64,000 nucleotides of DNA from Patescibacteria group bacterium (GCA_022710645.1 JAKLGL010000001.1:100152-164151); one strand, 5' to 3'; shown: positions 5,756 through 61,809, counted from the first letter of the stretch. The notes: generated by a model not told the origin, from the letters alone. Made by a program: numbers and translations.

Positions 5756-6814
5756 TTATTTCAATTTCTTCTTCAAAAAATCAACAAAAGGTATGGCGGT
5801 CGGATCAATATCTTCCACTATGGCGGAATAAAAACTCAGATAAGAGCTTACTAATAAAATTTCCATTGCTTGGGCCAAAGCGGATTTTTCGTGTGTTTTG
5901 ATTGTGACAAAATTTATTTTATTCATTTTCAAAACTTCTTTGGTCAAAGATATGCGTTGTTTTATCTTGTCCGAATACAAATCTGATTCCAAAAATATGA
6001 ACAACAGATTATTTTTATTGCTTTTCGGATTTATCATCCCTTCGAGCAAATGATGGTTGAGCTCGGGAAGTAAAAAATATCCGCCAAAACGTTTAGCATT
6101 TTCATTCATTTGATTGGCGGCGATATGCGCGGAACCTCCCAAATGAGAAGAACCGATAAACCACACGGATTTGTCTTTGGTCTTTTCGGCAACATCTTTT
6201 ACAAGATTTTTTGTTTTAACCCCGAATTTTTTATTTAATCCCCCTATCAACTTCGGAATTCTTTTCAAATCCTCTGTTTTTGTTTTTAATAAACCCAATT
6301 TAGCAAACAAATAAATTTGTCCGACTATTGAATACCCTAACCCCATTCGCGGTGAGCCGCATGGATTGTTGTTGGTGGTAAAAATCAAAGCCGGATATTT
6401 TTCTTTTTTGGCAAGAGCCTCAAGTTTTCCTCCGGCGGAAATCACGGTGATTTTACATTTTTTCTTTTTGGCCTCAGTGGCGCAAGATAAAACTTCTTCC
6501 GTATTGCCGGAATAACTGCTAAGTATCACCAAAGTGTTTTTATTCGCAAATCCGGGCAACTGATAACCGTTAACAATACTGAGCGGAATTTTCAAATCGT
6601 TTTTATATACACTTTTTATCAGATGCGCGCCCAGAGCTGATCCACCCATCCCGCAGACAACCACATTTTCAAATTTTTTATAATTTTTCGGGATTTTAAT
6701 ATTTTTTACCGCTTTCCCGACTTCTTTTATTTGTTCGCCCAAAAGTTCAATACTACCGAGCATGTTTTTACTGTCTAGTTGTTTGATTTTAGCTAAATTA
6801 TCTAATATTTTCAT
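5756..6814 (-). CDS. Bifunctional phosphoglucose/phosphomannose isomerase (SIS-domain, archaeal-type)
   Basis: Two SIS domains (VVCGMGGSALGAHL and FIGSSHLGGSAHIAANQMNENAKR). About 350 aa, typical of the PGI/PMI family. Confidence 0.7.
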   Translation of the reverse strand: MKILDNLAKIKQLDSKNMLGSIELLGEQIKEVGKAVKNIKIPKNYKKFENVVVCGMGGSALGAHLIKSVYKNDLKIPLSIVNGYQLPGFANKNTLVILSSYSGNTEEVLSCATEAKKKKCKITVISAGGKLEALAKKEKYPALIFTTNNNPCGSPRMGLGYSIVGQIYLFAKLGLLKTKTEDLKRIPKLIGGLNKKFGVKTKNLVKDVAEKTKDKSVWFIGSSHLGGSAHIAANQMNENAKRFGGYFLLPELNHHLLEGMINPKSNKNNLLFIFLESDLYSDKIKQRISLTKEVLKMNKINFVTIKTHEKSALAQAMEILLVSSYLSFYSAIVEDIDPTAIPFVDFLKKKLK

Positions 6815-34148: not shown

Positions 34149-35528
34149 ATGCTCTACCGCTTTAAACAATTTATTATTCTCTTTGGAGACTTGATTTTGC
34201 TTTATTTAAGCTTATTTTTAGCATTGTTGATTCGTTATCAACAACATCCTTGGAATCGCTTTTCAGAACTATTAAGCGATTTTTTACCTTTGTTTTTGAT
34301 CGGCGCGGTTATTTTTTATATCGCCAGCTTATACGATATAAGTAAAAAGCGTTCTTGGGGTGAGTTGTTACAAGCTTCTCTGTTATCCTGTCTGGCCTGG
34401 ATGTTTTTCGGCTTCGCTTACTTTTATTTTCAACAAAGTCCGGTCGGAAGCCCAAAAACGATACTTTTTTTAACCGCTGTTTTTTACGCTTTTTTAACCG
34501 CTTTATGGAGGCAGATACATTTGCATTATTTAGCTAAAAACGTTTTAAACACCAAAACAATAATCATAGGCATCACTCCGGCATCTTTGGAAACAGCCGA
34601 AATTTTACATCGCGAACCTGAACGCGGGTACGAACTTTGCGGATTTGTAGAAAACGATCCTGATAAAAAACTTTCTTCCGAACTTTCCGTTTATCCCGTA
34701 TTTTCCACTATTTCCGCTTTAAAAGAAAAATGCAAAAAAATAAATCTTATCGTTTTTTGTCCGGAAAATACAGGCAAAGAAGAATTGGCCGCGGAAATTT
34801 ACACGGAATTTTTTTCCGGAGCCGGGATTTCAAATCTTTCTGATTTTTATGAAAAACTTTTCGGCCGTCTACCGCCATTTGTTTTTTCACAAACTTGGTT
34901 TTTAAACAATCTGCCGGAACAAGAAAAGAAAATATATGATCGCGTGAAGATAATTTTGGATTATGGCGCGGCAGTTTTGATGGGTTTATTTTTTATAATC
35001 ACTTTTCCTATTGTCGCTTTTTTAATCAAAACCACTTCTCAAGGTCCCCTATTTTTTACCCAAACCAGAACCGGAATATTCGGTAAATCTTTCAAAATGT
35101 ATAAATACCGCACCATGCGAGCATTGAACTCCGACGGTAGCGCCGAAACATCCGGTCCGCAATACGCGCAAAAAAAAGATGTTCGCATTACAGCGGTCGG
35201 AAAATTTTTACGAGCCACCCGTATAGACGAAATTCCGCAATTTATCAATATTCTCAAAAACGAAATGTCTCTCATTGGTCCTCGACCAGAAAGACCGGAA
35301 TTTGTAGAAGAATTAATCAAGGCTCTGCCTTATTATCGTTTGCGTCATCTCACTAAACCCGGACTCACCGGCTGGGCGCAACTTCATAATTCTTATTACG
35401 GCAGTATTGAAGAAAACCTCAAAAAATTGGAATACGACTTATACTATATCAAACACCGCAGTCCGATGTTGGATCTCATGATTATACTCAAAACTGTGGC
35501 AGTGGTGCTCAAGATGATGGGGAGATAA
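34149..35528 (+). CDS. Polyprenyl-phosphate sugar phosphotransferase (WbaP/bacterial sugar transferase family)
   Basis: Four N-terminal TM helices and a C-terminal catalytic domain (KMYKYRTM, RIDEIPQFINILKNEMSLIGPRPERPEF). Confidence 0.85.
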   Translation: MLYRFKQFIILFGDLILLYLSLFLALLIRYQQHPWNRFSELLSDFLPLFLIGAVIFYIASLYDISKKRSWGELLQASLLSCLAWMFFGFAYFYFQQSPVGSPKTILFLTAVFYAFLTALWRQIHLHYLAKNVLNTKTIIIGITPASLETAEILHREPERGYELCGFVENDPDKKLSSELSVYPVFSTISALKEKCKKINLIVFCPENTGKEELAAEIYTEFFSGAGISNLSDFYEKLFGRLPPFVFSQTWFLNNLPEQEKKIYDRVKIILDYGAAVLMGLFFIITFPIVAFLIKTTSQGPLFFTQTRTGIFGKSFKMYKYRTMRALNSDGSAETSGPQYAQKKDVRITAVGKFLRATRIDEIPQFINILKNEMSLIGPRPERPEFVEELIKALPYYRLRHLTKPGLTGWAQLHNSYYGSIEENLKKLEYDLYYIKHRSPMLDLMIILKTVAVVLKMMGR

Positions 35529-35535
35529 AAAAATA

Positions 35536-35558
35536 ACTCGCGAAAGCGAGTATTTTTT
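35536..35558 (+). terminator. Intrinsic terminator of the sugar phosphotransferase gene
   Basis: ACTCGCgaaaGCGAGTattttttatttt, with a GNRA loop. Confidence 0.65.
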
Positions 35559-35565
35559 ATTTTAC

Positions 35566-36130
35566 TCTCATGTCTCCCCTAAATTATCCGACATCCTTCG
35601 CTTGTAATAGTATTATTTTTTTCTTTAATCCACTTTTTGTAACCAAAAACTGGAGGAAAAAGTTTCCTCGCGGTTGAACCAACTAAAGCAGAGTTGTCTT
35701 CTTCGCTGTCTCTTTTGTTCAAAACTCGACCTCCTGTCTACAACAGGAGGTCTCAAACAGTTGAACAAATTTTGCTATAAGGCAAAACCGCTCCAGCTCA
35801 TCGCAACTGCTAATTATTTGGTTCAAATGCGAGGACTTCCGAACCGTTGGCCAACGGTCACGAAGGCGAACATTTAAAAATACGAACAAATTTTGTTAAG
35901 GAGCGAAGCGTTAAGAAATTCTACTGTTTGATCCGCCTCAGGCGGAGAGTTTAGAATTTTAGCGTAGCGACCTTTACAAAATTGTGAGGATTTTTAACAG
36001 TGAGCGATTTTCTTTCTGTCCACTTTCTTATTAAAAAGAAAGTGGACGAAAACCGCGATAGCAGAATGAAAGTATTTAGAAAAGTTGAACGTTGGAATAA
36101 TTTGGAATAATAAAGGAGATATTTTAAAAT
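35566..36130. ncRNA. Candidate structured non-coding RNA or regulatory region (unclassified)
   Basis: About 560 nt with no credible ORF, enclosed by terminators on both sides. Several perfect hairpins: GACCTCCTGTctacaaACAGGAGGTC, GTCCACTTTCTTattaaaaAGAAAGTGGAC, GGAGGAAAaagTTTCCTC, TTTTGCtataagGCAAAA and CCGCCtcaGGCGG. GAACAAATTTTGnTAAGG occurs twice, and GTTGAAC/GTTCAAA elements recur. Confidence 0.3.
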
Positions 36131-36157
36131 AAAAAAAGACCGGCTGTGGTGCCGGTC
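36131..36157 (-). terminator. Intrinsic terminator of the 71-aa gene
   Basis: Minus strand: GACCGGCaccacaGCCGGTCtttttttatttt. Confidence 0.6.
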
Positions 36158-36173
36158 AGTATTAATACATCAT

Positions 36174-36389
36174 TCATTTTTCTTTTCTTCCACATATCTT
36201 CCTCCATTGCAAGTTAAAATTTTCAACAACCCTTCTTCTTTTTATTATTTTTCTAATCAACCTGATTAAAAGAACACTTTGTCCACTATTCCTAAGATAG
36301 ACTATGAAGTCCCTTTCTGATTTGAGATTTCCTTTTGCTATTTCATAGCATTTATTTAAAATCTCTTCAGCATATTTTTTACCTGTCAT
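36174..36389 (-). CDS. Hypothetical small basic protein (71 aa)
   Basis: Lys/Arg-rich C-terminus (IIKRRRVVENFNLQWRKICGRKEK). Own promoter-like TTGACAAAAG...TAGGTT and own terminator. AGA/AGG Arg codons are unusual for the neighbourhood. Confidence 0.4.
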   Translation of the reverse strand: MTGKKYAEEILNKCYEIAKGNLKSERDFIVYLRNSGQSVLLIRLIRKIIKRRRVVENFNLQWRKICGRKEK

Positions 36390-36467
36390 CTTTCAATCTC
36401 CTTCTTGAAATATTAATAAATTTGTAATGAACACCAAATTAACCTATCAGAAATAGAGGCTTTTGTC

Positions 36468-36493
36468 AATAAAACCACCCTTTCAGGTGGCTT
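36468..36493 (-). terminator. Intrinsic terminator of rlmN
   Basis: Minus strand: aaaaGCCACCtgaaagGGTGGttttatt. Confidence 0.6.
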
Positions 36494-36503
36494 TTACTGT
36501 TTA

Positions 36504-37541
36504 TTAGCTTATCTGATCGTTCCTCAACTGTCCACAAGCCGCGGCAATATCCTGTCCCTGCGACAAACGAATAGTTACTGTAAATCCACTATCCATCAAC
36601 TTCTTTTGCCATTTTTTTAAGATCTCCATATCCGAACCGACAAATATTCCAGTCGTGTCATTATACGGAATCAAGTTTATTCTTACTCGGCCGAGTTTGC
36701 TTGCCAATTTTATCAACGCTTTTAAATTTTTATCATCATCATTAATCCCGGATAAAAATGAATATTCCAAACCGATAAATTGAGTGCGACTGGTAAATTT
36801 TGCGTGATACTGTTTTGACCAATCTATCAAAAACTCAAAAAAATTATCCGCGTGGCTGGGCATCAGTTTTTTTCTTATTTCCGGTATTGCACTATGAAGC
36901 GATAGAGCAAATCGCACCGGCGGAAAATCCGAATCTTCAATCATTTTTTTCATTCCCGGGATTACCCCGCAAGTGGACATGGTGATTTTACTTTGGCCTA
37001 TTTTCCCGTATTTTATAAATAAATTTAACGCTTCTTTGACATTGTCATAATTAAGCAGAGGTTCGCCTTGTCCCATAAGCACGATATTATCCACTTCTCC
37101 CCCGTCTTTTTCAGCCAGATGTCTTTGCCAAAAACGATATTGATCTACCAATTCATCTACGGATAAATTTCTTTTGAAACCCATTTTACCGGTCGCGCAA
37201 AAAGCGCAATTCATCGGACAACCGACTTGAGTGGACAAACAAATCGTATAACGAAATTCATTTTCTCTGGTTTCTCTTTTATTAACCCTACCCATCAATA
37301 CGGTTTCTATGGTTTGCCCGTCGGATAATTCCAAAAGCGCTTTGACAGTATTTCCGTCTTTACTTTTTTGCAATAAAATCGGTTTTACGGATAACCAAGG
37401 AAAATCTTTTATCTTTTCTCGCAAATCTTTTGACAAAGTTGTTATTTGATCATACGAATTCAAATGCGAATCAAATTTTCCTTGCCAAATTTGATCTTGT
37501 TTATAACGAGGTTGATTTTGCAACAATTCTTTCAAGTTCAT
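36504..37541 (-). CDS. rlmN: 23S rRNA/tRNA (adenine-C2)-methyltransferase RlmN (radical SAM)
   Basis: CPMNCAFCATG cluster, the Cys in MSTCGV, and RlmN/Cfr-family length and motif order. Confidence 0.9.
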   Translation of the reverse strand: MNLKELLQNQPRYKQDQIWQGKFDSHLNSYDQITTLSKDLREKIKDFPWLSVKPILLQKSKDGNTVKALLELSDGQTIETVLMGRVNKRETRENEFRYTICLSTQVGCPMNCAFCATGKMGFKRNLSVDELVDQYRFWQRHLAEKDGGEVDNIVLMGQGEPLLNYDNVKEALNLFIKYGKIGQSKITMSTCGVIPGMKKMIEDSDFPPVRFALSLHSAIPEIRKKLMPSHADNFFEFLIDWSKQYHAKFTSRTQFIGLEYSFLSGINDDDKNLKALIKLASKLGRVRINLIPYNDTTGIFVGSDMEILKKWQKKLMDSGFTVTIRLSQGQDIAAACGQLRNDQIS

Positions 37542-37549
37542 AATTTTAT

Positions 37550-40057
37550 TTAAACGTTTTTACCTACCATGATTTTAGCCAACCAAGATGTCAAAAACGG
37601 ACCAACGAAAAGCAAAAAATACTGGGTTAAATTCAAAGGAGAAAAATGAAAAAATCTATTAGTCGCCGGAATGGCAATTATCAACAAAATAACCGCGACT
37701 GTTCCCAATGCTATGCCGGTCAATAATTTATTGCTTTTTATCTGATCCCATTCGCGCAAAAATAATATGAGCATAGCTTGAGAAATAACCATTGATCCAA
37801 AAGCCATCGTACGTCCCAGATCCAAATCGCCACCGCAAATACTGAAACAATAAAAATAAAACAAACTCACAATCAAAATTGAAATCCCTTTGATAACAAC
37901 ACTCTTCCATGACTTGGGATTAATTAACGATTCGTTGGCCGGTCTGGGCGGTTCGTCCATTATATTATTCGGAGCTTTCTCTCTTTCAAAGCCCAAAACT
38001 GAAGCCGGATCGCAAATCAGCTCTAAAAATAAAATATGCATTGGTAGAAAAACCAAAGGACTACCAAAAAATACCGGAATAACAGCTAAACCAACGATAG
38101 GTAAATGAAAAGCCATCAAAAAAACAAAAGCTTGACGAAGGTTTTTATAAATACGACGTCCTTCATGCACAGCTTTGACAATAGTGGCAAAATTATCATC
38201 CATCAAAACTATACCGGCGGCGGCGCGAGCAACTTCCGTCCCGCGCAAACCCATAGCTAAACCGATGTCGGCTTTTTTGAGAGCCGGAGCATCATTTACT
38301 CCATCTCCGGTCATTGCTACTATTTCCCCTTGTTCTTGCAAAGCTTGTACTATGGCGTATTTTTGTTCCGGTTTAACGCGACAAAAAATATTATAACGAC
38401 GCACAGCTTCTTTGAGAGCCGCAGGAGACATTTTCTGTAATTCTTCCCCACTTACCACATCATCGTTGTGTTTTAAATTTATACTTTCGGCTATAGTATG
38501 CGCGGTCAATTTATTATCTCCCGTAATCATAAAAATTTTTATCCCCGCACGTTGACAAGTTTCTATAGCTTCTTTGACTCCGGCTCGCGGCGGATCACTC
38601 ATAGCCAGCAGTCCGACAAATTCCATATTTTCAAAACAAACTTTATCTTTTTCTCCACATTTTCTTTTAGCTACTCCGATAACCCTATACCCTTCGCTTG
38701 CCAATTTTTCATAAGCTTCCATAGCTGTTTTTTTGGACGCTTCATCCAAAACGGAATACGAAATTATATTTTCCGGAGCGCCGGCACTATATTGCGCGCA
38801 CCCGTTTTGTTTATCTTTCCAAATATGATGAACTGTTTTGGTGCTGGAAGAAAAAGCTTGTTCGTCCAAAAGTTTTTTTCCGGAAAAAAACTTATCCGGA
38901 TCTATTCCTTGTTCTTTGGCAATTTTTTGCATTTCTATTTCTATCGGATCAACAGCCACCTGCTCCAACGCTAAAATTGAAGTTTCTATCAAATTATTAA
39001 ATTCTCCTTGTCTTTTTTGAAAATTATCTTTAGTTAAAATTTCTTGATTATAATAAATTTTTTCCAGAGCCATCCTGCCTTCAGTCAAAGTTCCGGTTTT
39101 ATCCGTACAAATCACAGTGGCACTACCGAGAGTTTCCACCATCGCCATTTCGCGAATCATGGCTTTATTTTTGGCCATACGCCAAACACCCATAATCAAA
39201 AATACGGAAAACACCACCGGAAATTCTTCGGGAATCAATGCCATAGCTATAGCCAAAGCTCCGAGTACTCCTTCCTTGAAACCAAACTTTAAAACCAAAC
39301 CCAAACCAACCAAAAAAGCTGAAGATATGGCAACTGTGGCCACGACTCTTATTAATCGCGCTATTTTCTTCTGTAACGGAGTTTTTTGCTTTTCAATACT
39401 TTGCAACAAATCACCCAAACGACCGTAAGCCGTATGCAAACCGGTAGCTTCAACCAACATTTCTCCGTCTCCTTGAACAACCAAAGTTCCTTGAAAAACT
39501 TTATGTTTATCTTCATTCAACAACTTTAGAACATCCGGAATTTGTTCTTTAACCACAGCTACGGACTCTCCGGTCAAAATAGACATATCCACCATCAATC
39601 CTTTGGTATTAAAAAGAAAACCGTCAGCCGCTATTTTATCTCCGGATGTCAGATAAACCAAATCTCCCGGGACTATTTGAGCGATATCTCTAGTAACCAA
39701 TTTTCCATCGCGGTAAACTTTACATTTTTCCACCATCATCTGATCGAGAGCCGCTATAGTATCGTCGGTTCTTTTTTCTTGAAAAAATTCCATCAAACCG
39801 ATGGGTATGATAGCTCCCAAAAAAACAACGGCTTCCACGGTATCGCCAACAAAAAAATAAACGGCCGCTGTCGCTATTATCAAAAACATCATGGGTTCGG
39901 TAAAAATATCCCAAGCCCTTTTCCAAACCGTTTTATTTTTCTTTTTTTGTCTCTCATTACGACCGTATTCAACCAATCTCTTTTCCGCTTCGTTAGATGA
40001 TAGTCCTTTATAATTTTCTTTTTTAGAAAAAACACTGTCGATTATTTCATTGCTCAT
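37550..40057 (-). CDS. P-type cation-transporting ATPase, P2-type (Ca2+-ATPase-like)
   Basis: ICTDKTGTLT, MITGDN, VAMTGDGVNDAPALKKADIG; 835 aa with 10 TM helices. Confidence 0.9.
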   Translation of the reverse strand: MSNEIIDSVFSKKENYKGLSSNEAEKRLVEYGRNERQKKKNKTVWKRAWDIFTEPMMFLIIATAAVYFFVGDTVEAVVFLGAIIPIGLMEFFQEKRTDDTIAALDQMMVEKCKVYRDGKLVTRDIAQIVPGDLVYLTSGDKIAADGFLFNTKGLMVDMSILTGESVAVVKEQIPDVLKLLNEDKHKVFQGTLVVQGDGEMLVEATGLHTAYGRLGDLLQSIEKQKTPLQKKIARLIRVVATVAISSAFLVGLGLVLKFGFKEGVLGALAIAMALIPEEFPVVFSVFLIMGVWRMAKNKAMIREMAMVETLGSATVICTDKTGTLTEGRMALEKIYYNQEILTKDNFQKRQGEFNNLIETSILALEQVAVDPIEIEMQKIAKEQGIDPDKFFSGKKLLDEQAFSSSTKTVHHIWKDKQNGCAQYSAGAPENIISYSVLDEASKKTAMEAYEKLASEGYRVIGVAKRKCGEKDKVCFENMEFVGLLAMSDPPRAGVKEAIETCQRAGIKIFMITGDNKLTAHTIAESINLKHNDDVVSGEELQKMSPAALKEAVRRYNIFCRVKPEQKYAIVQALQEQGEIVAMTGDGVNDAPALKKADIGLAMGLRGTEVARAAAGIVLMDDNFATIVKAVHEGRRIYKNLRQAFVFLMAFHLPIVGLAVIPVFFGSPLVFLPMHILFLELICDPASVLGFEREKAPNNIMDEPPRPANESLINPKSWKSVVIKGISILIVSLFYFYCFSICGGDLDLGRTMAFGSMVISQAMLILFLREWDQIKSNKLLTGIALGTVAVILLIIAIPATNRFFHFSPLNLTQYFLLFVGPFLTSWLAKIMVGKNV

Positions 40058-57098: not shown

Positions 57099-57204
57099 AT
57101 AAATTTTAAATGGTTTTTACCGTTTAAATATATCAAATTTTAATCTTTTGGTCAAAACAAATTTCCTTTTTAAATAGGCAAAATTTTTGTCTTTTTAAAA
57201 AGAA

Positions 57205-57229
57205 AGGTGAGGTTTTTTAGGCCTCACCT
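57205..57229 (-). terminator. Intrinsic terminator of cassette d
   Basis: Minus strand: AGGTGAGGcctaaaaaaCCTCACCTttcttttt. Confidence 0.6.
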
Positions 57230-57253
57230 ATGAGAAGAACTTGAGAAAGAATA

Positions 57254-58429
57254 TTAGTTGACGCATGATACGAGGTTGTGATCAACACACCGCACGTTCT
57301 CAACGTGTTTGCCGGCAGTCGAACCTTCGCCCTTGGCGTTCATCGGCAATGATGAAGTAATGGAACAGAACCCGATACTACGGTACCAGATTGTCATGCC
57401 GGTAGAATTGAAATAATCAAAACCGCGGTTATTCTGTCCGGCATTCCATCCTTCGATGTAATTGCCAGGAACAAGCTCGGTCAAGATCACTTTGTCCTTG
57501 CAGGACTCCGAAGTTATCGGATTCTGAATCGTCGGCACAACATCAATGTCAGTGTCGGGAGTTTCGTCGACATCCGCAAGGACATCGTCTTCACTCTCCA
57601 CCACCGAATCATTGTCGGACTCACTGATTTCATCAGTATCCGAAGCTTCATCAACTTCTTCAGCTGAATCGCTATCAGGAGTTTCATCAACAACCGGATT
57701 GTCGTTGATTTCGACATTGTCTACATCCGACGCTTCATCCACAACTACATCTTCATCATTGACCACATCTTGCGCGATCAAGCTAACGAAAATTTCTCCA
57801 TTTTCCTCGTCGAATGTGTATCCATCGCCAGGTAGAAGTGTGACAACAAGTGTCTTATCCTGCGACAGCATCTGAAGAACTTCGAATGTCAGAGGTACGG
57901 CGCTGACACCTTTGGGAATAACGAACTTATTCTGGCCACACGTCTCCGGCATGCTATTGATGGCATAATCGATTCCGAGATAAGCACCAGCTAACTTGTA
58001 AGATACACAGATGTCATTTTCCGATTTGCCGGAAATAACGCTAAAAAAGACGGAAATAAATTGATCACGCTTGGCCGAGGTCGGTTCGCCGAAGGCTAAT
58101 TCGATCTCGGGTAAGATCTCGTCGGCATCGGAAACCAGTTCATCATTCACGATATCATCAGTCACCTTTTCTTCGTCAACGAATATTTCATCGTTGATTT
58201 CGGAATCGGTTTCTGCTTCGTTTATGAGCAACTCATCACTGTCGTTTTCAGATTCATCAGTCACGACATTACTGTCATTTTCCGATTCATCAGTGAGTTC
58301 CTCATCAACGATACTGTTGTTGTCTCCCTTTTCCTCGACAGAGGAATTGGTTGACGCCAACGGAACGCAAGAAACGGCAAGCATGGAAACCATCGCGAAA
58401 ACGATCGCGAAAATAAAACCTTTTTTCAT
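57254..58429 (-). CDS. Acidic Calx-beta-like lipoprotein with a Cys-containing C-terminal domain (cassette d)
   Basis: RBS GGAGG and an ATG at 58429 (MKKGF...). Lipobox AVSC. Asp/Glu/Ser/Val low-complexity arms flank a Calx-beta-like core (...DYAINS...KFVIPKGVSAVPLTFEVL...TLLPGDGY). C-terminus has 5 Cys. GC-rich codons. Confidence 0.7.
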   Translation of the reverse strand: MKKGFIFAIVFAMVSMLAVSCVPLASTNSSVEEKGDNNSIVDEELTDESENDSNVVTDESENDSDELLINEAETDSEINDEIFVDEEKVTDDIVNDELVSDADEILPEIELAFGEPTSAKRDQFISVFFSVISGKSENDICVSYKLAGAYLGIDYAINSMPETCGQNKFVIPKGVSAVPLTFEVLQMLSQDKTLVVTLLPGDGYTFDEENGEIFVSLIAQDVVNDEDVVVDEASDVDNVEINDNPVVDETPDSDSAEEVDEASDTDEISESDNDSVVESEDDVLADVDETPDTDIDVVPTIQNPITSESCKDKVILTELVPGNYIEGWNAGQNNRGFDYFNSTGMTIWYRSIGFCSITSSLPMNAKGEGSTAGKHVENVRCVDHNLVSCVN

Positions 58430-58631
58430 GGTAGCCTCCAATGAAAAGTTATTGTTGGACTCTTTCTCTAAGTTTTAAGGAACTTTGGGATTATTACTCC
58501 CAGCTAAATTTTCAATTTCTTGAAAATCTACCTACGGGCAATAAAAAACTCTCTTTGAAATAAGAGAGTGCGGAAATTCGCTGTTTTTACCAATCCGCGC
58601 TCTCTCCAACGCTTTTTGATTTTAACGTGAT

Positions 58632-58660
58632 ATTATAGCACATTTTGGCACTTTTGTCAA
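58632..58660 (-). promoter_or_regulatory. Family promoter module, copy d (perfect TTGACA-17-TGcTATAAT)
   Basis: Minus strand reads TTGACAAAAGTGCCAAAATGTGCTATAAT. Confidence 0.75.
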
Positions 58661-58669
58661 TACCTTAAC

Positions 58670-58687
58670 TTGGCTAATATTAGCCAA
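58670..58687. promoter_or_regulatory. Perfect 18-bp palindrome TTGGCTAATATTAGCCAA, 10 nt upstream of the -35 of copy d
   Basis: Read directly from the sequence. Confidence 0.45.
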
Positions 58688-58734
58688 ATTTACTTTAGCT
58701 TATTTTAGCCAAAATAGCTAAAATTAAACAAAAA

Positions 58735-58754
58735 GGCGGCCCTGAAGGGCCGCC
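58735..58754 (-). terminator. Intrinsic terminator of cassette e
   Basis: Minus strand: GGCGGCCCttcaGGGCCGCCtttttgttt. Confidence 0.65.
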
Positions 58755-58775
58755 GGTTAAAGGTTTAGAAAGTTA

Positions 58776-61622
58776 TTAAAGTCCATCGTGAGTGCAAGTA
58801 TTCACATCGGGGTGGTAGAACCCCACACCCGTACAGACCGGGATAGTCTGCTGGACTGCGCTGGCATTGAAACACTGTGCACTGCACCAACCAGTACTTA
58901 CGAAAAACGCACTGGCCGCACCCTGGAAATTCTGCGGGTTTCCAAGGTGATCATAGAAGACACAGTGGTCGGCGCTTGATGATGTTTTGATGGTGAAGGA
59001 ATTACATACCGACGAGCTCGGTCCCTGGGGCGTATAAACGACCCTTTCGGAACACGAGTAAACGGTAGAGGTAATACTGTCGGGCAAACCATCCTGATTA
59101 GCATCGGGACCGCTCTCGATCCTTTTGCCACCGTGCTGACAATTTGCTCCGACCGGCTCATCAGTGATACGAACAGCTGTGGAAACTCCATCAGCTCCAT
59201 CGCTTCCATCCGTTCCATTAGTGCCATCCGTACCATCTTCACCGTCCTCACCGGGCACACCATTGCAGACATACTTGGTATTGAGAACTTCGACTGCATC
59301 AAGCGTGCCATTGCTGTTGAGGTCAAGGCCGGTTTCGATTTTCTGACCACTGTACTGACAGTTGAGACCAGCGGGTTCAAAGACCACATTCACGAGTGAA
59401 TTAAGGCCATTGGCGCCGTTTGTCCCATTCGTACCATTGGTGCCATCCGTGCCATCTTCTCCGTCTTCACCGTTGCAGACATAGGCAGTGGAATTTTCTT
59501 CACCAAGGTTCAGGATGTTGTCATCGTTGTAATCAACACCTGTCCTGGTACGCTGTCCACCGTTGCCATAAGCATCACAGTTTGTGCCGACCAGAATGTC
59601 GACTACCGTCAAACTGTTATGCCCATTAGCACCGTTTGTTCCATTGGTTCCGTCAGTTCCGTCCGCACCATTGCAGACGTAGGAAATGAACTGAACTTCT
59701 CCGGGGTTAAAATTCCCCGAATCATTCAGATCTATTCCCGCTCTGATACGAGTACCGCCGTTGCCATAAGCATCACAGTTGGTGCCAACCAGAGTGTCGA
59801 CTACTGTCAAGCTGTTATGCCCGTTAGCGCCGTCAATACCATCCGTACCATCGGTACCGTTAGTTCCATCGCTTCCATCAGTTCCATTTACGCCGTCGAT
59901 CCCAGGAGCACCGTCCGCACCGTTACAAAGGTAAACAGTGGAAGTTATCTCCGAATCTTCGAGCGTATTGGAATCATCCAGGTCAAGCCCGGAACGGAAA
60001 CGCAAACCGCCGTTGCCGAAGGTGTCACAGTTGGTGCCGACAGTTGAGTCCTGGATTGTCAGTGAGTTATGACCGTTCGTGCCATTGGTTCCGTTGGTAC
60101 CGTTTGTACCGTCAGTTCCATCTGTGCCGTCCGTGCCATCTTCTCCATCTTCACCATCTTCACCGGGAGCGCCGTCACAAACATAAGTTGTCGCGCTCAC
60201 TTCTCCAGCATCCAGAACACCGTTATCATCCAGGTCAAGCCCGGAACGGATCCTTTGGCCGGTACCGTTGAGGGCATCACAATTGACACCTACGACATTA
60301 TCATAGGCAGTCAGCGAATTGTGACCATTGGTTCCGTTGGTGCCGTTTGTACCGTCAGTTCCATCTGTGCCGTCCGTGCCATCTTCTCCGTCTTCCCCGT
60401 TACAAGAATACCCGACAGAAGTCACTTCAGTAGCATCGAGAATATTATCGTCGTTGATATCCACACCTGCGCGTGTGCGCTGTCCGCCATTAGCGCAGTT
60501 GGTTCCGACAACATCGTCAATAACTACCAGACCATTATGGCCGTTAGCACCATCTGCACCGTCAGTTCCATTGGTACCATCGGTACCGTTAGTTCCGTCA
60601 ATACCGTCCAGGCCATCAGCGCCGTTGCAAAGAAATTGGGTGGAGTCTATTTCACCCAATTCAAGCACATTATTGCGCGCCGTACTGCCGAGACCATCGC
60701 CGTTATCAAGTCCGGAACGGATCCTGATTCCGCCATTGCCATAAGCATCGCAATTGACACCTACGACATTGTCGTAAACAGTCAGAGGATTAAATCCGTC
60801 AGCACCGTCTTTGCCGTTACAGTTATAGGAAACTGAATCGACTTCGACCGCATCAAGCGTATTATCTCCGTCATCATCGACACCTACTCTGGTGCGCTGT
60901 CCACCGTTGCCGTATGCATCGCAATGAGTCCCTACGACATCATCTACGAGAACGAGACTGTTGTGACCATCCGCACCATCTGCGCCATTGCAGATGTATT
61001 TGGTGGAATCTACTTCCACCGCATCAAGCGTACCGTCAGCATCGTCATCAAGACCGGAACGGATTCGGAGTCCGCCATTGCCATACTTGTCACAGTTGGC
61101 TCCGACAACATCGTCGGTAATGGTCAAACTGTTCTTTCCGTTCGTACCGTCTTCACCATCTTGGCCATCCTCACCGTCCTGACCGTCTTCACCATCACAG
61201 ACATAATCCGTTTTGGTGACTTCATCGGAATCAAGGACATCATTGTTGTTCAGGTCAATGCCTGACTCAACTTTTTTCCCGCCGTTTGTGCAGTTGGTAC
61301 CTTTGGGTTCGTCAGTGATGTTAACCAGCGATTTACTGCCGGCTTCACCGTCGTCACCCTTTTCACCGTTGCAAACGAACTCGGTGGACTTGATCTCATT
61401 CTTGTCGAGCTTGCCGTCATCATCGACATCAACACCCGACTCCACTTTCTTGCCGCCGAACTCGCAATTGTCGCCTTCGGGTTCATCGCTGACGAGAACG
61501 AGCGAATCGTGCCCGTCATCACCCTTGGCGGTACTGTTGTCTTCAGCCATCGGAAGGGAACATCCGGCCGTGAACATGGCGAAAACTATCGCCACCACGA
61601 AAACGGTGTTAAAATACTTCTT
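58776..61622 (-). CDS. Giant repetitive lipoprotein: about 14 Cys-pair/DxDxDG calcium-binding-like units separated by collagen-like Gly-X-Y tracts, with a Cys-rich C-terminal domain (cassette e)
   Basis: RBS GGAGGA and an ATG at 61622 (MKKYF...). Lipobox FTAGC. Unit pattern: HNSLT..D..VG.NCD.YGNGG.R.R.G.D..DD..LD..EV.S..Y.CNG.DG.DG, then (GTD/GTN) 3-10 times. C-terminus has about 10 Cys. Confidence 0.8.
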   Translation of the reverse strand, partial: KKYFNTVFVVAIVFAMFTAGCSLPMAEDNSTAKGDDGHDSLVLVSDEPEGDNCEFGGKKVESGVDVDDDGKLDKNEIKSTEFVCNGEKGDDGEAGSKSLVNITDEPKGTNCTNGGKKVESGIDLNNNDVLDSDEVTKTDYVCDGEDGQDGEDGQDGEDGTNGKNSLTITDDVVGANCDKYGNGGLRIRSGLDDDADGTLDAVEVDSTKYICNGADGADGHNSLVLVDDVVGTHCDAYGNGGQRTRVGVDDDGDNTLDAVEVDSVSYNCNGKDGADGFNPLTVYDNVVGVNCDAYGNGGIRIRSGLDNGDGLGSTARNNVLELGEIDSTQFLCNGADGLDGIDGTNGTDGTNGTDGADGANGHNGLVVIDDVVGTNCANGGQRTRAGVDINDDNILDATEVTSVGYSCNGEDGEDGTDGTDGTDGTNGTNGTNGHNSLTAYDNVVGVNCDALNGTGQRIRSGLDLDDNGVLDAGEVSATTYVCDGAPGEDGEDGEDGTDGTDGTDGTNGTNGTNGTNGHNSLTIQDSTVGTNCDTFGNGGLRFRSGLDLDDSNTLEDSEITSTVYLCNGADGAPGIDGVNGTDGSDGTNGTDGTDGIDGANGHNSLTVVDTLVGTNCDAYGNGGTRIRAGIDLNDSGNFNPGEVQFISYVCNGADGTDGTNGTNGANGHNSLTVVDILVGTNCDAYGNGGQRTRTGVDYNDDNILNLGEENSTAYVCNGEDGEDGTDGTNGTNGTNGANGLNSLVNVVFEPAGLNCQYSGQKIETGLDLNSNGTLDAVEVLNTKYVCNGVPGEDGEDGTDGTNGTDGSDGADGVSTAVRITDEPVGANCQHGGKRIESGPDANQDGLPDSITSTVYSCSERVVYTPQGPSSSVCNSFTIKTSSSADHCVFYDHLGNPQNFQGAASAFFVSTGWCSAQCFNASAVQQTIPVCTGVGFYHPDVNTCTHDGL
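60084..60147. repeat. Intragenic near-identical 64-bp repeat, copy 1
   Basis: cattggttccgttggtaccgtttgtaccgtcagttccatctgtgccgtccgtgccatcttctcc. Confidence 0.8.
60326..60389. repeat. Intragenic near-identical 64-bp repeat, copy 2 (one mismatch versus copy 1)
   Basis: cattggttccgttggtgccgtttgtaccgtcagttccatctgtgccgtccgtgccatcttctcc. Confidence 0.8.
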
Positions 61623-61809
61623 CATCACATCCTCCACGCGACATCAGTCGCTTAAGCAGTTATTAATTCCCGAAATACCAAAAATATATTTTTCTAAACC
61701 TTATATTTTCAAAGAACTTTTGCTCTCCTTTAGTTCAAAATCAAGACAAATAAAAAATCGGCTCTCTCCTTGATTTTGAGCTAAAAAAGAACATAAAATT
61801 TAACATAGT

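Follow-up and report, generated by a model that had tools for sequence, protein, structure and literature searches.

We analyzed a 64,000-nt stretch of DNA from a Patescibacteria group bacterium (GCA_022710645.1, JAKLGL010000001.1:100152-164151), hereafter the window, and focused on a hairpin-dense spacer at positions 35566-36130. A first-pass annotation, made from the sequence by itself, had described this spacer as 560 bp of non-coding DNA enclosed by terminators and as a candidate for an unclassified structured RNA or a protein-binding regulatory array. Our analysis showed that the spacer holds one copy of a family of non-coding foldback repeats, ~530-590 bp long and not described before, in Candidatus Magasanikbacteria, within the Patescibacteria or candidate phyla radiation (CPR). 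Two features had been missed: the 560 bp form a large imperfect palindrome of two inverted homologous modules, and they belong to a dispersed repeat family bounded by terminal inverted repeats (TIRs). Compensatory base changes among the copies demonstrated that single-strand secondary structure is under selection, and we regard a new foldback type of non-autonomous mobile element as somewhat more likely than not.

Architecture of the window copy

Alignment of 15 copies placed the boundaries of the whole element (~555 bp) at 35566-36120, and the family profile matched the window at 35568-36134. The element comprised a left module (L; 35566-35850) and a right module (R; 35851 to ~36120), inverted and homologous and each ~250-280 nt long. 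Folded separately, each gave a rod built of nested helices plus a terminal hairpin. The modules met at the central junction (35843-35858), where ACCGTTGG abuts CCAACGGT and the TTGGCCAA core was common to most copies. Comparison of the element with the reverse complement of itself gave a match of ~500 nt (32 bits, E 9e-10), with the centre at 35850/35851. This palindrome was not merely a pairing of the left half with the right, since the local hairpins in each half corresponded one to one. Consistent with this homology, a covariance model built from the R modules of seven copies found the L module of the window on the minus strand (35816-35664) over the whole length of the model (31.4 bits, E 0.003).

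The correspondence was clearest in hairpin H3 of module L (35715-35768) and its counterpart H3′ of module R (35916-35959). H3 consisted of an outer stem TTGTTCAA/TTGAACAA, an invariant internal loop AACTC/TCAAACAG, and a hypervariable inner stem GACCTCCTGT/ACAGGAGGTC (35728-35752), in which five of the eight pairs showed double-sided change across copies. H3′ carried the same asymmetric internal loop, which on the plus strand of R and the minus strand of L reads CTGTTTGA ... GAGTT; this motif with a hairpin-sized gap occurred exactly twice in the window, against 0.03 expected. The stems differed between the modules by compensating changes, both in the outer stem (AAATTCTA/TAGAATTT in R) and in the inner stem (TCCGCC/GGCGGA in R, seen as (T)CCGCC/GGCGG(A) at 35932-35946). 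Around H3′, nested helices formed the rod domain of module R (35864-36007, plus strand; covariance model R1, 153 bits). The conserved internal loop was considered as a kink-turn and rejected on inspection: tandem G·A pairs are possible beside the inner stem, but no C-stem, which a kink-turn requires, can be formed by the strands.

A second pair of hairpins lay nearer the ends. H1 of module L (TCCACTTTTTG-TAAC-CAAAAACTGGA; 35629-35654) and H1′ of module R (GTCCACTTTCTT-ATTAAA-AAGAAAGTGGAC; 36018-36047) shared the stem TCCACTTT/AAAGTGGA, and both sides changed in 3 of the 16 pairs of H1′. H1 was adjoined by hairpin H2 (GAGGAAA-AAG-TTTCCTC; 35653-35669). The 3′ arm of H2 overlapped the 5′ arm of a long-range helix, P, giving competing pairings. 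Helix P corresponded to inverted repeat I1 (arms ~35665-35698 and 35803-35835) and enclosed H3 and hairpin H4 (TTTTGC/GCAAAA; 35770-35787). Module L also contained a block, CGCTCCAGCTCATCGCAACTGCTAATTATTTGGTTCAAATGC (35789-35830), that was the same or almost the same in each of the 15 copies, the truncated L132 among them, and that had no counterpart in R. The five stem-loops named in the first-pass annotation were all present and could be located, as were its recurring words, including GAACAAATTTTGnTA, duplicated at 35763-35777 and 35884-35898.

The left TIR, GTCTCCCCTAAATTATCCGACATCCTTC (35572-35599, plus strand), was conserved at the left end of 10 copies; inverted and complemented, it gives the right-end consensus GAAGGATGTYGGAATAACAAGGGAGAC. 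The right TIR of the window copy, GTTGAACGTTGGAATAATTTGGAATAATAAAGGAGAT (36084-36120), aligned to this family end, is degenerate and contains a 10-nt internal duplication of TTGGAATAAT. In copies with both ends, the 27-28 nt terminal repeats GTCTCCCCTRAAWTATCCRACATCCTTC and GAAGGATGTYGGAATAACAAGGGAGAC were mutually inverted. The left repeat contained an inward-facing promoter-like site (CCGACA-17 nt-TATTAT; 35588-35616, plus strand; promoter scan), whose family form was CCRACA-17-TATTAT. TATTAT and RACA were invariant in 10 copies and the spacer was variable; the first hexamer was weak, with a -35 element devoid of TTG. The mirrored site at the right end retained only TTTYAT.

Covariation and strand preference

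The structures of the modules were obtained with RNAalifold from eight R and eleven L sequences. They comprised 52 pairs in R and 56 in L, with 97.0% and 96.2% of cells, respectively, forming standard pairs. Changes on both sides were found in 18 pairs of R, compared with 8.3 ± 1.6 in column shuffles (0 of 500 reached the observed number), and in 8 pairs of L, compared with 5.4 ± 1.2 (15 of 500 reached it). When the 3′ partner was slid by 1-3 columns, only 1-4 (R) and 0-4 (L) such pairs were counted. Whole helices were exchanged in R, for example AAAAATA/GGATTTTT for TAATCG/CGATTA and AATTTTGTTAAGG/CCTTTACAAAATT for AAATTTATAGACG/CGTCATAAATTT. The double changes in L included H4, which was TTCCGC/GCGGAA in three copies, the inner stem of H3, and a compensatory replacement of G-C by A-U in helix P between partners ~150 nt apart (L139 and L134). 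These controls leave phylogenetic non-independence in, and the sequences are few; chance covariation is nevertheless unlikely, given the slid controls and the number of pair types. The earlier proposal that the spacer holds real structure thus found support in compensatory changes that preserved helices across 8-11 homologues.

Folding energies agreed with this result. The minimum free energy of a 576-nt stretch was -180.7 kcal/mol on the plus strand and -178.2 kcal/mol on the minus strand, compared with approximately -125 kcal/mol for dinucleotide shuffles (z -8.76 and -8.62, respectively; 0 of 100 shuffles equally good). In a background scan of 212 tiles of 300 nt across the whole window, the tile at 35866-36165, which takes in the flanking terminator, was the most extreme (z -8.95), and the tile at 35566-35865 ranked seventh (z -4.84). 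The next-strongest signals (z -5.4 to -5.9) were at 57166-58965 and, on the minus strand, 58776-61637. These regions overlapped in part a 953-aa protein with 12 DUF7151 repeats and collagen triple-helix repeats, and repetitive coding sequence is the likely cause there; beside this protein lies a 395-aa open reading frame (ORF) with a TTG start (57254-58441) and no Pfam match.

Folded alone, the two modules preferred opposite strands. For L, the minus strand was the more stable one in 10 of 11 copies, with differences of up to 11.8 kcal/mol; for R, it was the plus strand in seven of eight copies, with differences of up to 21 kcal/mol. The better-folding strands were also purine-rich and run outward from the centre. 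This arrangement suggested a bidirectional promoter at the centre, which we rejected because no -10 or -35 element is conserved there and the centre is deleted in two copies; the sole conserved promoter-like site points inward. An assignment of the strand from wobble pairs was likewise abandoned, as the counts were not decisive (9 G-U versus 4 A-C cells in R; 7 versus 7, plus two invariant U-G pairs, in L).

Unequal evolution of the two modules

L modules were 84-99% identical and grouped by sample rather than by locus, which probably reflects grouping by genome. For example, the L modules of L136 and L146, from different loci in the same sample, were 99% identical, whereas pairs from the same locus showed 94% (window and L136), 88% (L139 and L146), and 90% (L135 and L138) identity. 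R modules were 58-92% identical and fell into three types, all of which were present in one sample. The R module of the window was 86-87% identical to R modules of other loci and 68% identical to that of L137, which occupies the same locus. Because different R types can thus occur at one site, the pattern argues for repeated insertion or conversion and not for simple vertical descent.

Comparison with the flanking genes provided a reference for these rates. Between the window and L136/L137, the flanking genes showed 71-76% DNA identity, L 92%, and R 71%, indicating that L is held or homogenized much more tightly than coding sequence. R, in turn, drifts at about the rate of the flanking genes yet keeps its pairing.

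Dispersal, position, and empty sites

The family was recognized through contig L132, which carries a transferase gene 78% identical to that beside the element and ends in 40 nt nearly identical to 35790-35828. This near-identity led us to scan metagenomes with a 20-mer from the near-invariant block. The scan returned 16 contigs, 14 of which carried homologues of the whole element (190-320 bits; 260-550 bits against the family profile); the other two were chance matches. The 14 further copies on these metagenome contigs occupied at least eight gene contexts. The genes flanking the window copy were shared only by L136 (transferase side) and L137 (RlmN side). Elsewhere, the element lay beside a lipoprotein gene (L139 and L146), MiaB-like and MiaA-like genes (L141 and L146), a methyltransferase and a pseudouridine synthase (L144), an acidic repeat protein (L135/L145 and L138), or a tRNA (L148), and L140 had PriA and Fmt neighbours. 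Many copies, eight in one sample, were cut at contig ends inside the most conserved block, as expected of a repeat in short-read assembly; eight contigs came from sample Ga0172379. Partial forms also occurred: L144 consists of an L module alone, with its end at the central TTGGCCAA, and L132 is truncated at its 5′ end. The central palindrome is missing from L142 and L148, and in most copies it is imperfect.

In the alignment of copies, the family left end reads TCTYAYGTCTCCCCTRAAWTATCCRACATCCTTC, directly preceded by TTAC where that motif occurs, and the right end GAAGGATGTYGGAATAACAAGGGAGAC is its inverted complement. Five copies, representing three independent loci (window, L136, L139, L146, and L144), have TTAC directly before the element; TTTC (L134) and TTAG (L140) were found at others. 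The window copy starts directly 3′ of TTAC, at 35566. A host terminator hairpin with a T-run lay within ~20-35 nt of eight of the 10 intact left ends, and at three right ends the element was followed by an A-run and a hairpin. Most copies are accordingly located between converging genes, with terminators near both ends.

Three relatives lacked the element from the spacer between the transferase and RlmN genes, namely L007 (spacer of 115 bp), L008 (390 bp), and L133 (26 bp). Relatives of RlmN assign the window to Candidatus Magasanikbacteria; the RlmN genes of L007 and L008 were 87-88% identical to that of the window, and the transferase of L133 was 75% identical. In all three, the two genes converge and no spacer resembles the element, and at the empty sites of L007 and L133 the transferase terminator with a T-run ending in TTTAC or ATTAC was kept. 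The empty-site spacers of L007 (11060-11125) and L008 (11330-11400) each contained several tandem AAAGATT(T/A) motifs, none of which is found in the window. In the closest relative of the transferase (L131, 88%), an in-frame TAATAA stands at 6420-6440 where the window has TGGAATAC, and homology continues beyond; the gene is either a pseudogene or affected by an assembly error, and the contig ends before the spacer.

Among 80 RlmN loci from GTDB genomes, nhmmer found no copy. The family profile gave one diverged and truncated R-like match (L035), to which the covariance model added none. This module (positions 1-232) lies directly upstream of the leuS start in a metagenome-assembled genome (MAG) of the Parcubacteria group and is cut by the edge of the fetched locus; it has a hairpin GCCACTTTTCTTTT/AAAAGAAAAGTGGC and the end GGGGAG, without the CTGTTTGA/GAGTT loop. 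Separately, a GC-rich palindromic mini-repeat of ~40-60 nt (GAGCTTGTCCGTCCGTAG...CTACGGACGGACAAGCTC, CCCCGCCTTC...ACGGACGGGCAGG) was found within the H1 loop of L142, L135/L145, and L148. It also adjoined the element ends at the left flank of L142 and the right flank of L135/L145, and appears to be a nested copy of a different small repeat family.

Searches against known families and coding potential

The view that the spacer is non-coding withstood comparison among copies, in which no ORF was conserved. The six small ORFs in the element had no Pfam match; neither the ATG of a 35-aa ORF nor the frames of the 67-aa and 56-aa ORFs were kept, that of the 67-aa ORF being broken by indels in relatives. 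Rfam (4227 families) gave no family at gathering score in the whole window and, at E ≤ 10, only chance-level hairpin look-alikes of 12-26 bits; at the loci of 13 other copies, only a tRNA matched at E ≤ 0.1. The first-pass annotation had also found no convincing transfer-messenger RNA (tmRNA), RNase P, or signal recognition particle (SRP) RNA. Consistent with that, an ARAGORN scan gave no tRNA or tmRNA in the region, and the gathering-level comparison with Rfam 15 gave no match to RNase P, tmRNA, SRP, 6S, ROOL, GOLLD, OLE, group I/II introns, or T-box. Models of the HEARO or omega-RNA type matched none of the 14 copies under the same two E-value limits, a search outside which omega-RNAs that have no model would fall.

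A phage or plasmid origin was rejected, as blastn found no match in 50,697 phage and 72,556 plasmid records. A scan of viral contigs with the internal-loop motif returned 44 matches, none with the hairpin architecture, and a second scan returned one chance match.

Nature of the element

We consider it somewhat more likely than not that the family represents a new foldback, non-autonomous mobile element resembling miniature inverted-repeat transposable elements (MITEs), repetitive extragenic palindromic (REP) doublets forming hairpins (REPINs), or palindrome-associated transposable elements (PATEs), with selected single-stranded DNA or RNA structure. A candidate enzyme encoded elsewhere would copy the element, or homogenize or convert it. 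The hairpins would be selected because they are needed in a single-stranded state, either as single-stranded DNA during mobilization or as RNA, and transcription of a putative RNA could begin at the conserved promoter-like site that faces inward from the left end. A dispersed family with TIRs, several gene contexts, and empty orthologous sites fits a non-autonomous mobile or dispersed element better than one dedicated RNA gene. The earlier suggestion of an unclassified RNA therefore stands in part: the spacer is non-coding and structured and belongs to no Rfam family, whereas its dispersed repeat pattern agrees less well with a single RNA gene.

Several observations weigh against mobility. In three copies a single contig covers both ends, and no target-site duplication was recognized there; the repeat TATTTTA, a possible candidate at the window copy, is of low complexity and was not reproduced at other copies. 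No transposase was seen in the flanking ORFs or Pfam lists of the copies, although no search for an enzyme with matching ends was made. There was no second copy in the window or in 10 kb on either side (~83 kb of genome), and the origin of the eight Ga0172379 contigs in one or two genomes is an assumption. Several loci are occupied in more than one species, which speaks for low mobility. With ~560 bp, the element exceeds a REPIN fivefold in length and is large by the standards of bacterial MITEs. Finally, covariation extends through the whole interior, beyond what a cut-and-paste DNA transposon needs, as is typical of functional RNAs.

The main rival explanation, which is serious but to which we assign clearly less weight, is that the element is a multi-copy host gene for a large structured non-coding RNA (ncRNA). 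The gene might produce a single ~500-nt plus-strand transcript from the left promoter-like site, in which L would form a constant 5′ domain and R a covarying 3′ rod, or two RNAs, one per module; the TIRs would then be mirrored module ends, and dispersal would reflect gene duplication with concerted evolution. Interior-wide covariation with invariant internal-loop sequences is in keeping with such a gene, as is the TATTAT site with its conserved hexamer positions and variable spacer. The terminators insulate the element on both sides, a solo L module exists (L144), and conservation of L exceeds that of the neighbouring protein genes. Different species carry the element at the same loci, the R wobble counts slightly favour the plus strand (9 G-U versus 4 A-C), and a diverged R-like module lies upstream of leuS in the Parcubacteria MAG. 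The orientation of the modules is harder to reconcile with a gene, as they are opposed and no strand carries both in the same sense. The favoured strands, L minus (10/11) and R plus (7/8), point outward, with no conserved central promoter, whereas the sole promoter-like site points inward; moreover, no intrinsic terminator follows either module. The absence of the element at this locus in three close relatives would be odd for a needed RNA, and the 14 copies matched none of the 4227 Rfam families.

The two explanations are not mutually exclusive, because PATEs carry omega-RNAs (PMC10055086). In a more speculative and rather unlikely proposal, a new class of mobile large structured RNA of CPR bacteria, with a constant L and an R that varies in sequence but conserves its structure, transcribed from its own end and acting with a nuclease or recombinase supplied in trans, might direct or bias its spread into terminator-proximal TTAC sites. 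The omega-RNAs of PATEs and bridge RNAs act together with such enzymes.

The remaining explanations fitted poorly. We consider it improbable that the element acts purely at the DNA level, as a palindromic array that binds proteins or as a site for recombination or chromosome organization, in double-stranded or cruciform form and with neither RNA nor mobility. Its overall dyad symmetry with the TTGGCCAA core at the centre, the equal folding of both strands as a whole, and the long invariant blocks in L would suit such a site. Double-stranded protein-binding sites, however, need no compensatory changes in local hairpins; conservation does not extend to the central palindrome, which L142 and L148 have lost and which is imperfect in most copies; GC skew shows no turning point here; and dispersal over many loci with near-identity within samples would be left unexplained. 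An origin of replication was rejected on the same lack of a GC-skew turn and because the element is multi-copy. Least probable of all, and largely refuted by the conservation pattern, is a functionless relic of an old inverted duplication of a terminator-rich spacer, its hairpins kept by template-switch quasipalindrome correction: equal folding of both strands, the decayed right end of the window copy, and an adjacent orphan ORF that indicates a fluid spacer would agree with it, whereas the 84-99% identity of L against 71-76% in flanking genes, covariation of pairs ~150 nt apart, the occurrence in at least eight contexts, and invariant unpaired internal loops amid varying stems would not.

Genomic surroundings of the window copy

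The placement of the spacer between two terminators, as first described, was borne out by the terminator scan. To the left lies the gene for a sugar (Bac_transf-type) transferase (34149-35528, plus strand), whose terminator occupies the flank at 35536-35565, with a hairpin at 35536-35551 that was scored as bidirectional and a T-run ending in TTAC at 35562-35565. To the right, outside the element, an A-rich flank (36121-36157) includes the minus-strand terminator (36157-36138) of a 71-aa ORF (36174-36389, minus strand), beyond which is the RlmN gene (36504-37541, minus strand). The terminators at 35536-35551 and 36157-36138 thus enclose 35566-36130. A perfect 12-nt inverted repeat, TTTTTTATTTTA/TAAAATAAAAAA (35553-35564 and 36125-36136), brackets the element just outside its ends; it probably represents the T- and A-tails of the two terminators, but may instead belong to the insertion site.

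The 71-aa ORF has a strong AAGGAG ribosome-binding site, a promoter-like TTGACA-17-TAGGTT near 36440-36468, and the terminator at 36157-36138. It had no relatives among 5.8 billion proteins and only a sub-threshold Pfam match, and it is missing in L007, L008, and L133; being an orphan, it therefore offers no handle on the element. A P-type cation ATPase gene (37550-40057, minus strand) separates the RlmN and DXP synthase genes in the window, L133, and L137. L007 and L008 lack it, and their DXP synthase and RlmN genes are directly adjacent, a second indel in this neighbourhood.

Significance

Genomes of CPR bacteria are ~1 Mb in size, densely packed, and poor in repeats, and a 560-bp non-coding element at multiple loci stands out among them. 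Literature searches on repeats and structured RNAs of CPR bacteria yielded no description of their ncRNAs or small mobile elements, and no Rfam family matches. One half of the element is conserved beyond the neighbouring protein genes, and the other keeps ~50 base pairs by compensatory change. If it is a mobile element, it would be of an unusually large and structurally constrained foldback type and would help explain assembly breaks; if it is an RNA, a new class of large RNAs would be at hand for structure probing. Searches for the family can now draw on the alignment and the covariance model, together with the 20-nt tag CGCAACTGCTAATTATTTGG.

Comparison with known systems

Large ornate bacterial ncRNAs, such as ROOL, GOLLD, OLE, and raiA, are several hundred nucleotides long, have many covarying helices, and are sometimes found on mobile DNA. 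The element shares their length, the abundance of covarying helices, and the lack of an assigned function, but their Rfam models do not match it, and we know of no ornate ncRNA that is a palindrome of two inverted modules or bounded by TIRs.

MITEs, including the Correia elements of Neisseria, ERIC, and RUP, are non-coding, multi-copy, intergenic sequences with TIRs, often beside terminators. They can fold as a long hairpin, may carry promoter-like sites, and vary in presence between relatives. The element resembles them in its inverted ends, lack of an ORF, intergenic position near terminators, foldback structure, promoter-like site, and variable presence. It differs in size, ~560 bp being two to five times that of usual bacterial MITEs and the family range of 530-590 bp lying at or above their usual upper limit. 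No target-site duplication or parent insertion sequence was found, the latter as judged only from flanking ORFs and Pfam lists. In addition, the interior covaries extensively, the halves evolve differently, and occupancy of the same locus persists across species.

PATEs are protein-less derivatives of IS200/IS605 that often carry an omega-RNA (PMC10055086). Like them, the element is hundreds of base pairs long and has a structured interior without an ORF, and its mobilization would occur in trans. Its left end may likewise abut a short motif, since TTAC stands directly 5′ of five left ends from three loci, with TTTC and TTAG at two others, and no target-site duplication was detected. Similar stems (TCCACTTT/AAAGTGGA) are found close to either end on one and the same strand. 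Unlike the ends of the element, those of IS200/IS605 are not TIRs, and their hairpins lie ~10-20 nt from the cleavage sites, whereas H1 and H1′ lie ~64 and ~75 nt from the ends. Moreover, no omega-RNA or HEARO model of Rfam matched, and inverted homologous halves are not shown by the IS200/IS605 family.

REPINs, in which REP doublets form hairpins, are mobilized by RAYT transposases and are ~100 nt long with REP units of ~25 nt (PMC3116915; bioRxiv 10.1101/2021.07.10.451892). The units of the element are 250-280 nt with complex internal structure rather than ~25 nt, and its copy number here is small. Both are inverted doublets that are extragenic and non-autonomous (in the case of the element, as far as its sequence suggests), with long-term persistence at orthologous positions and with near-identical copies, within a genome in REPINs and, for the L halves of the element, within a sample.

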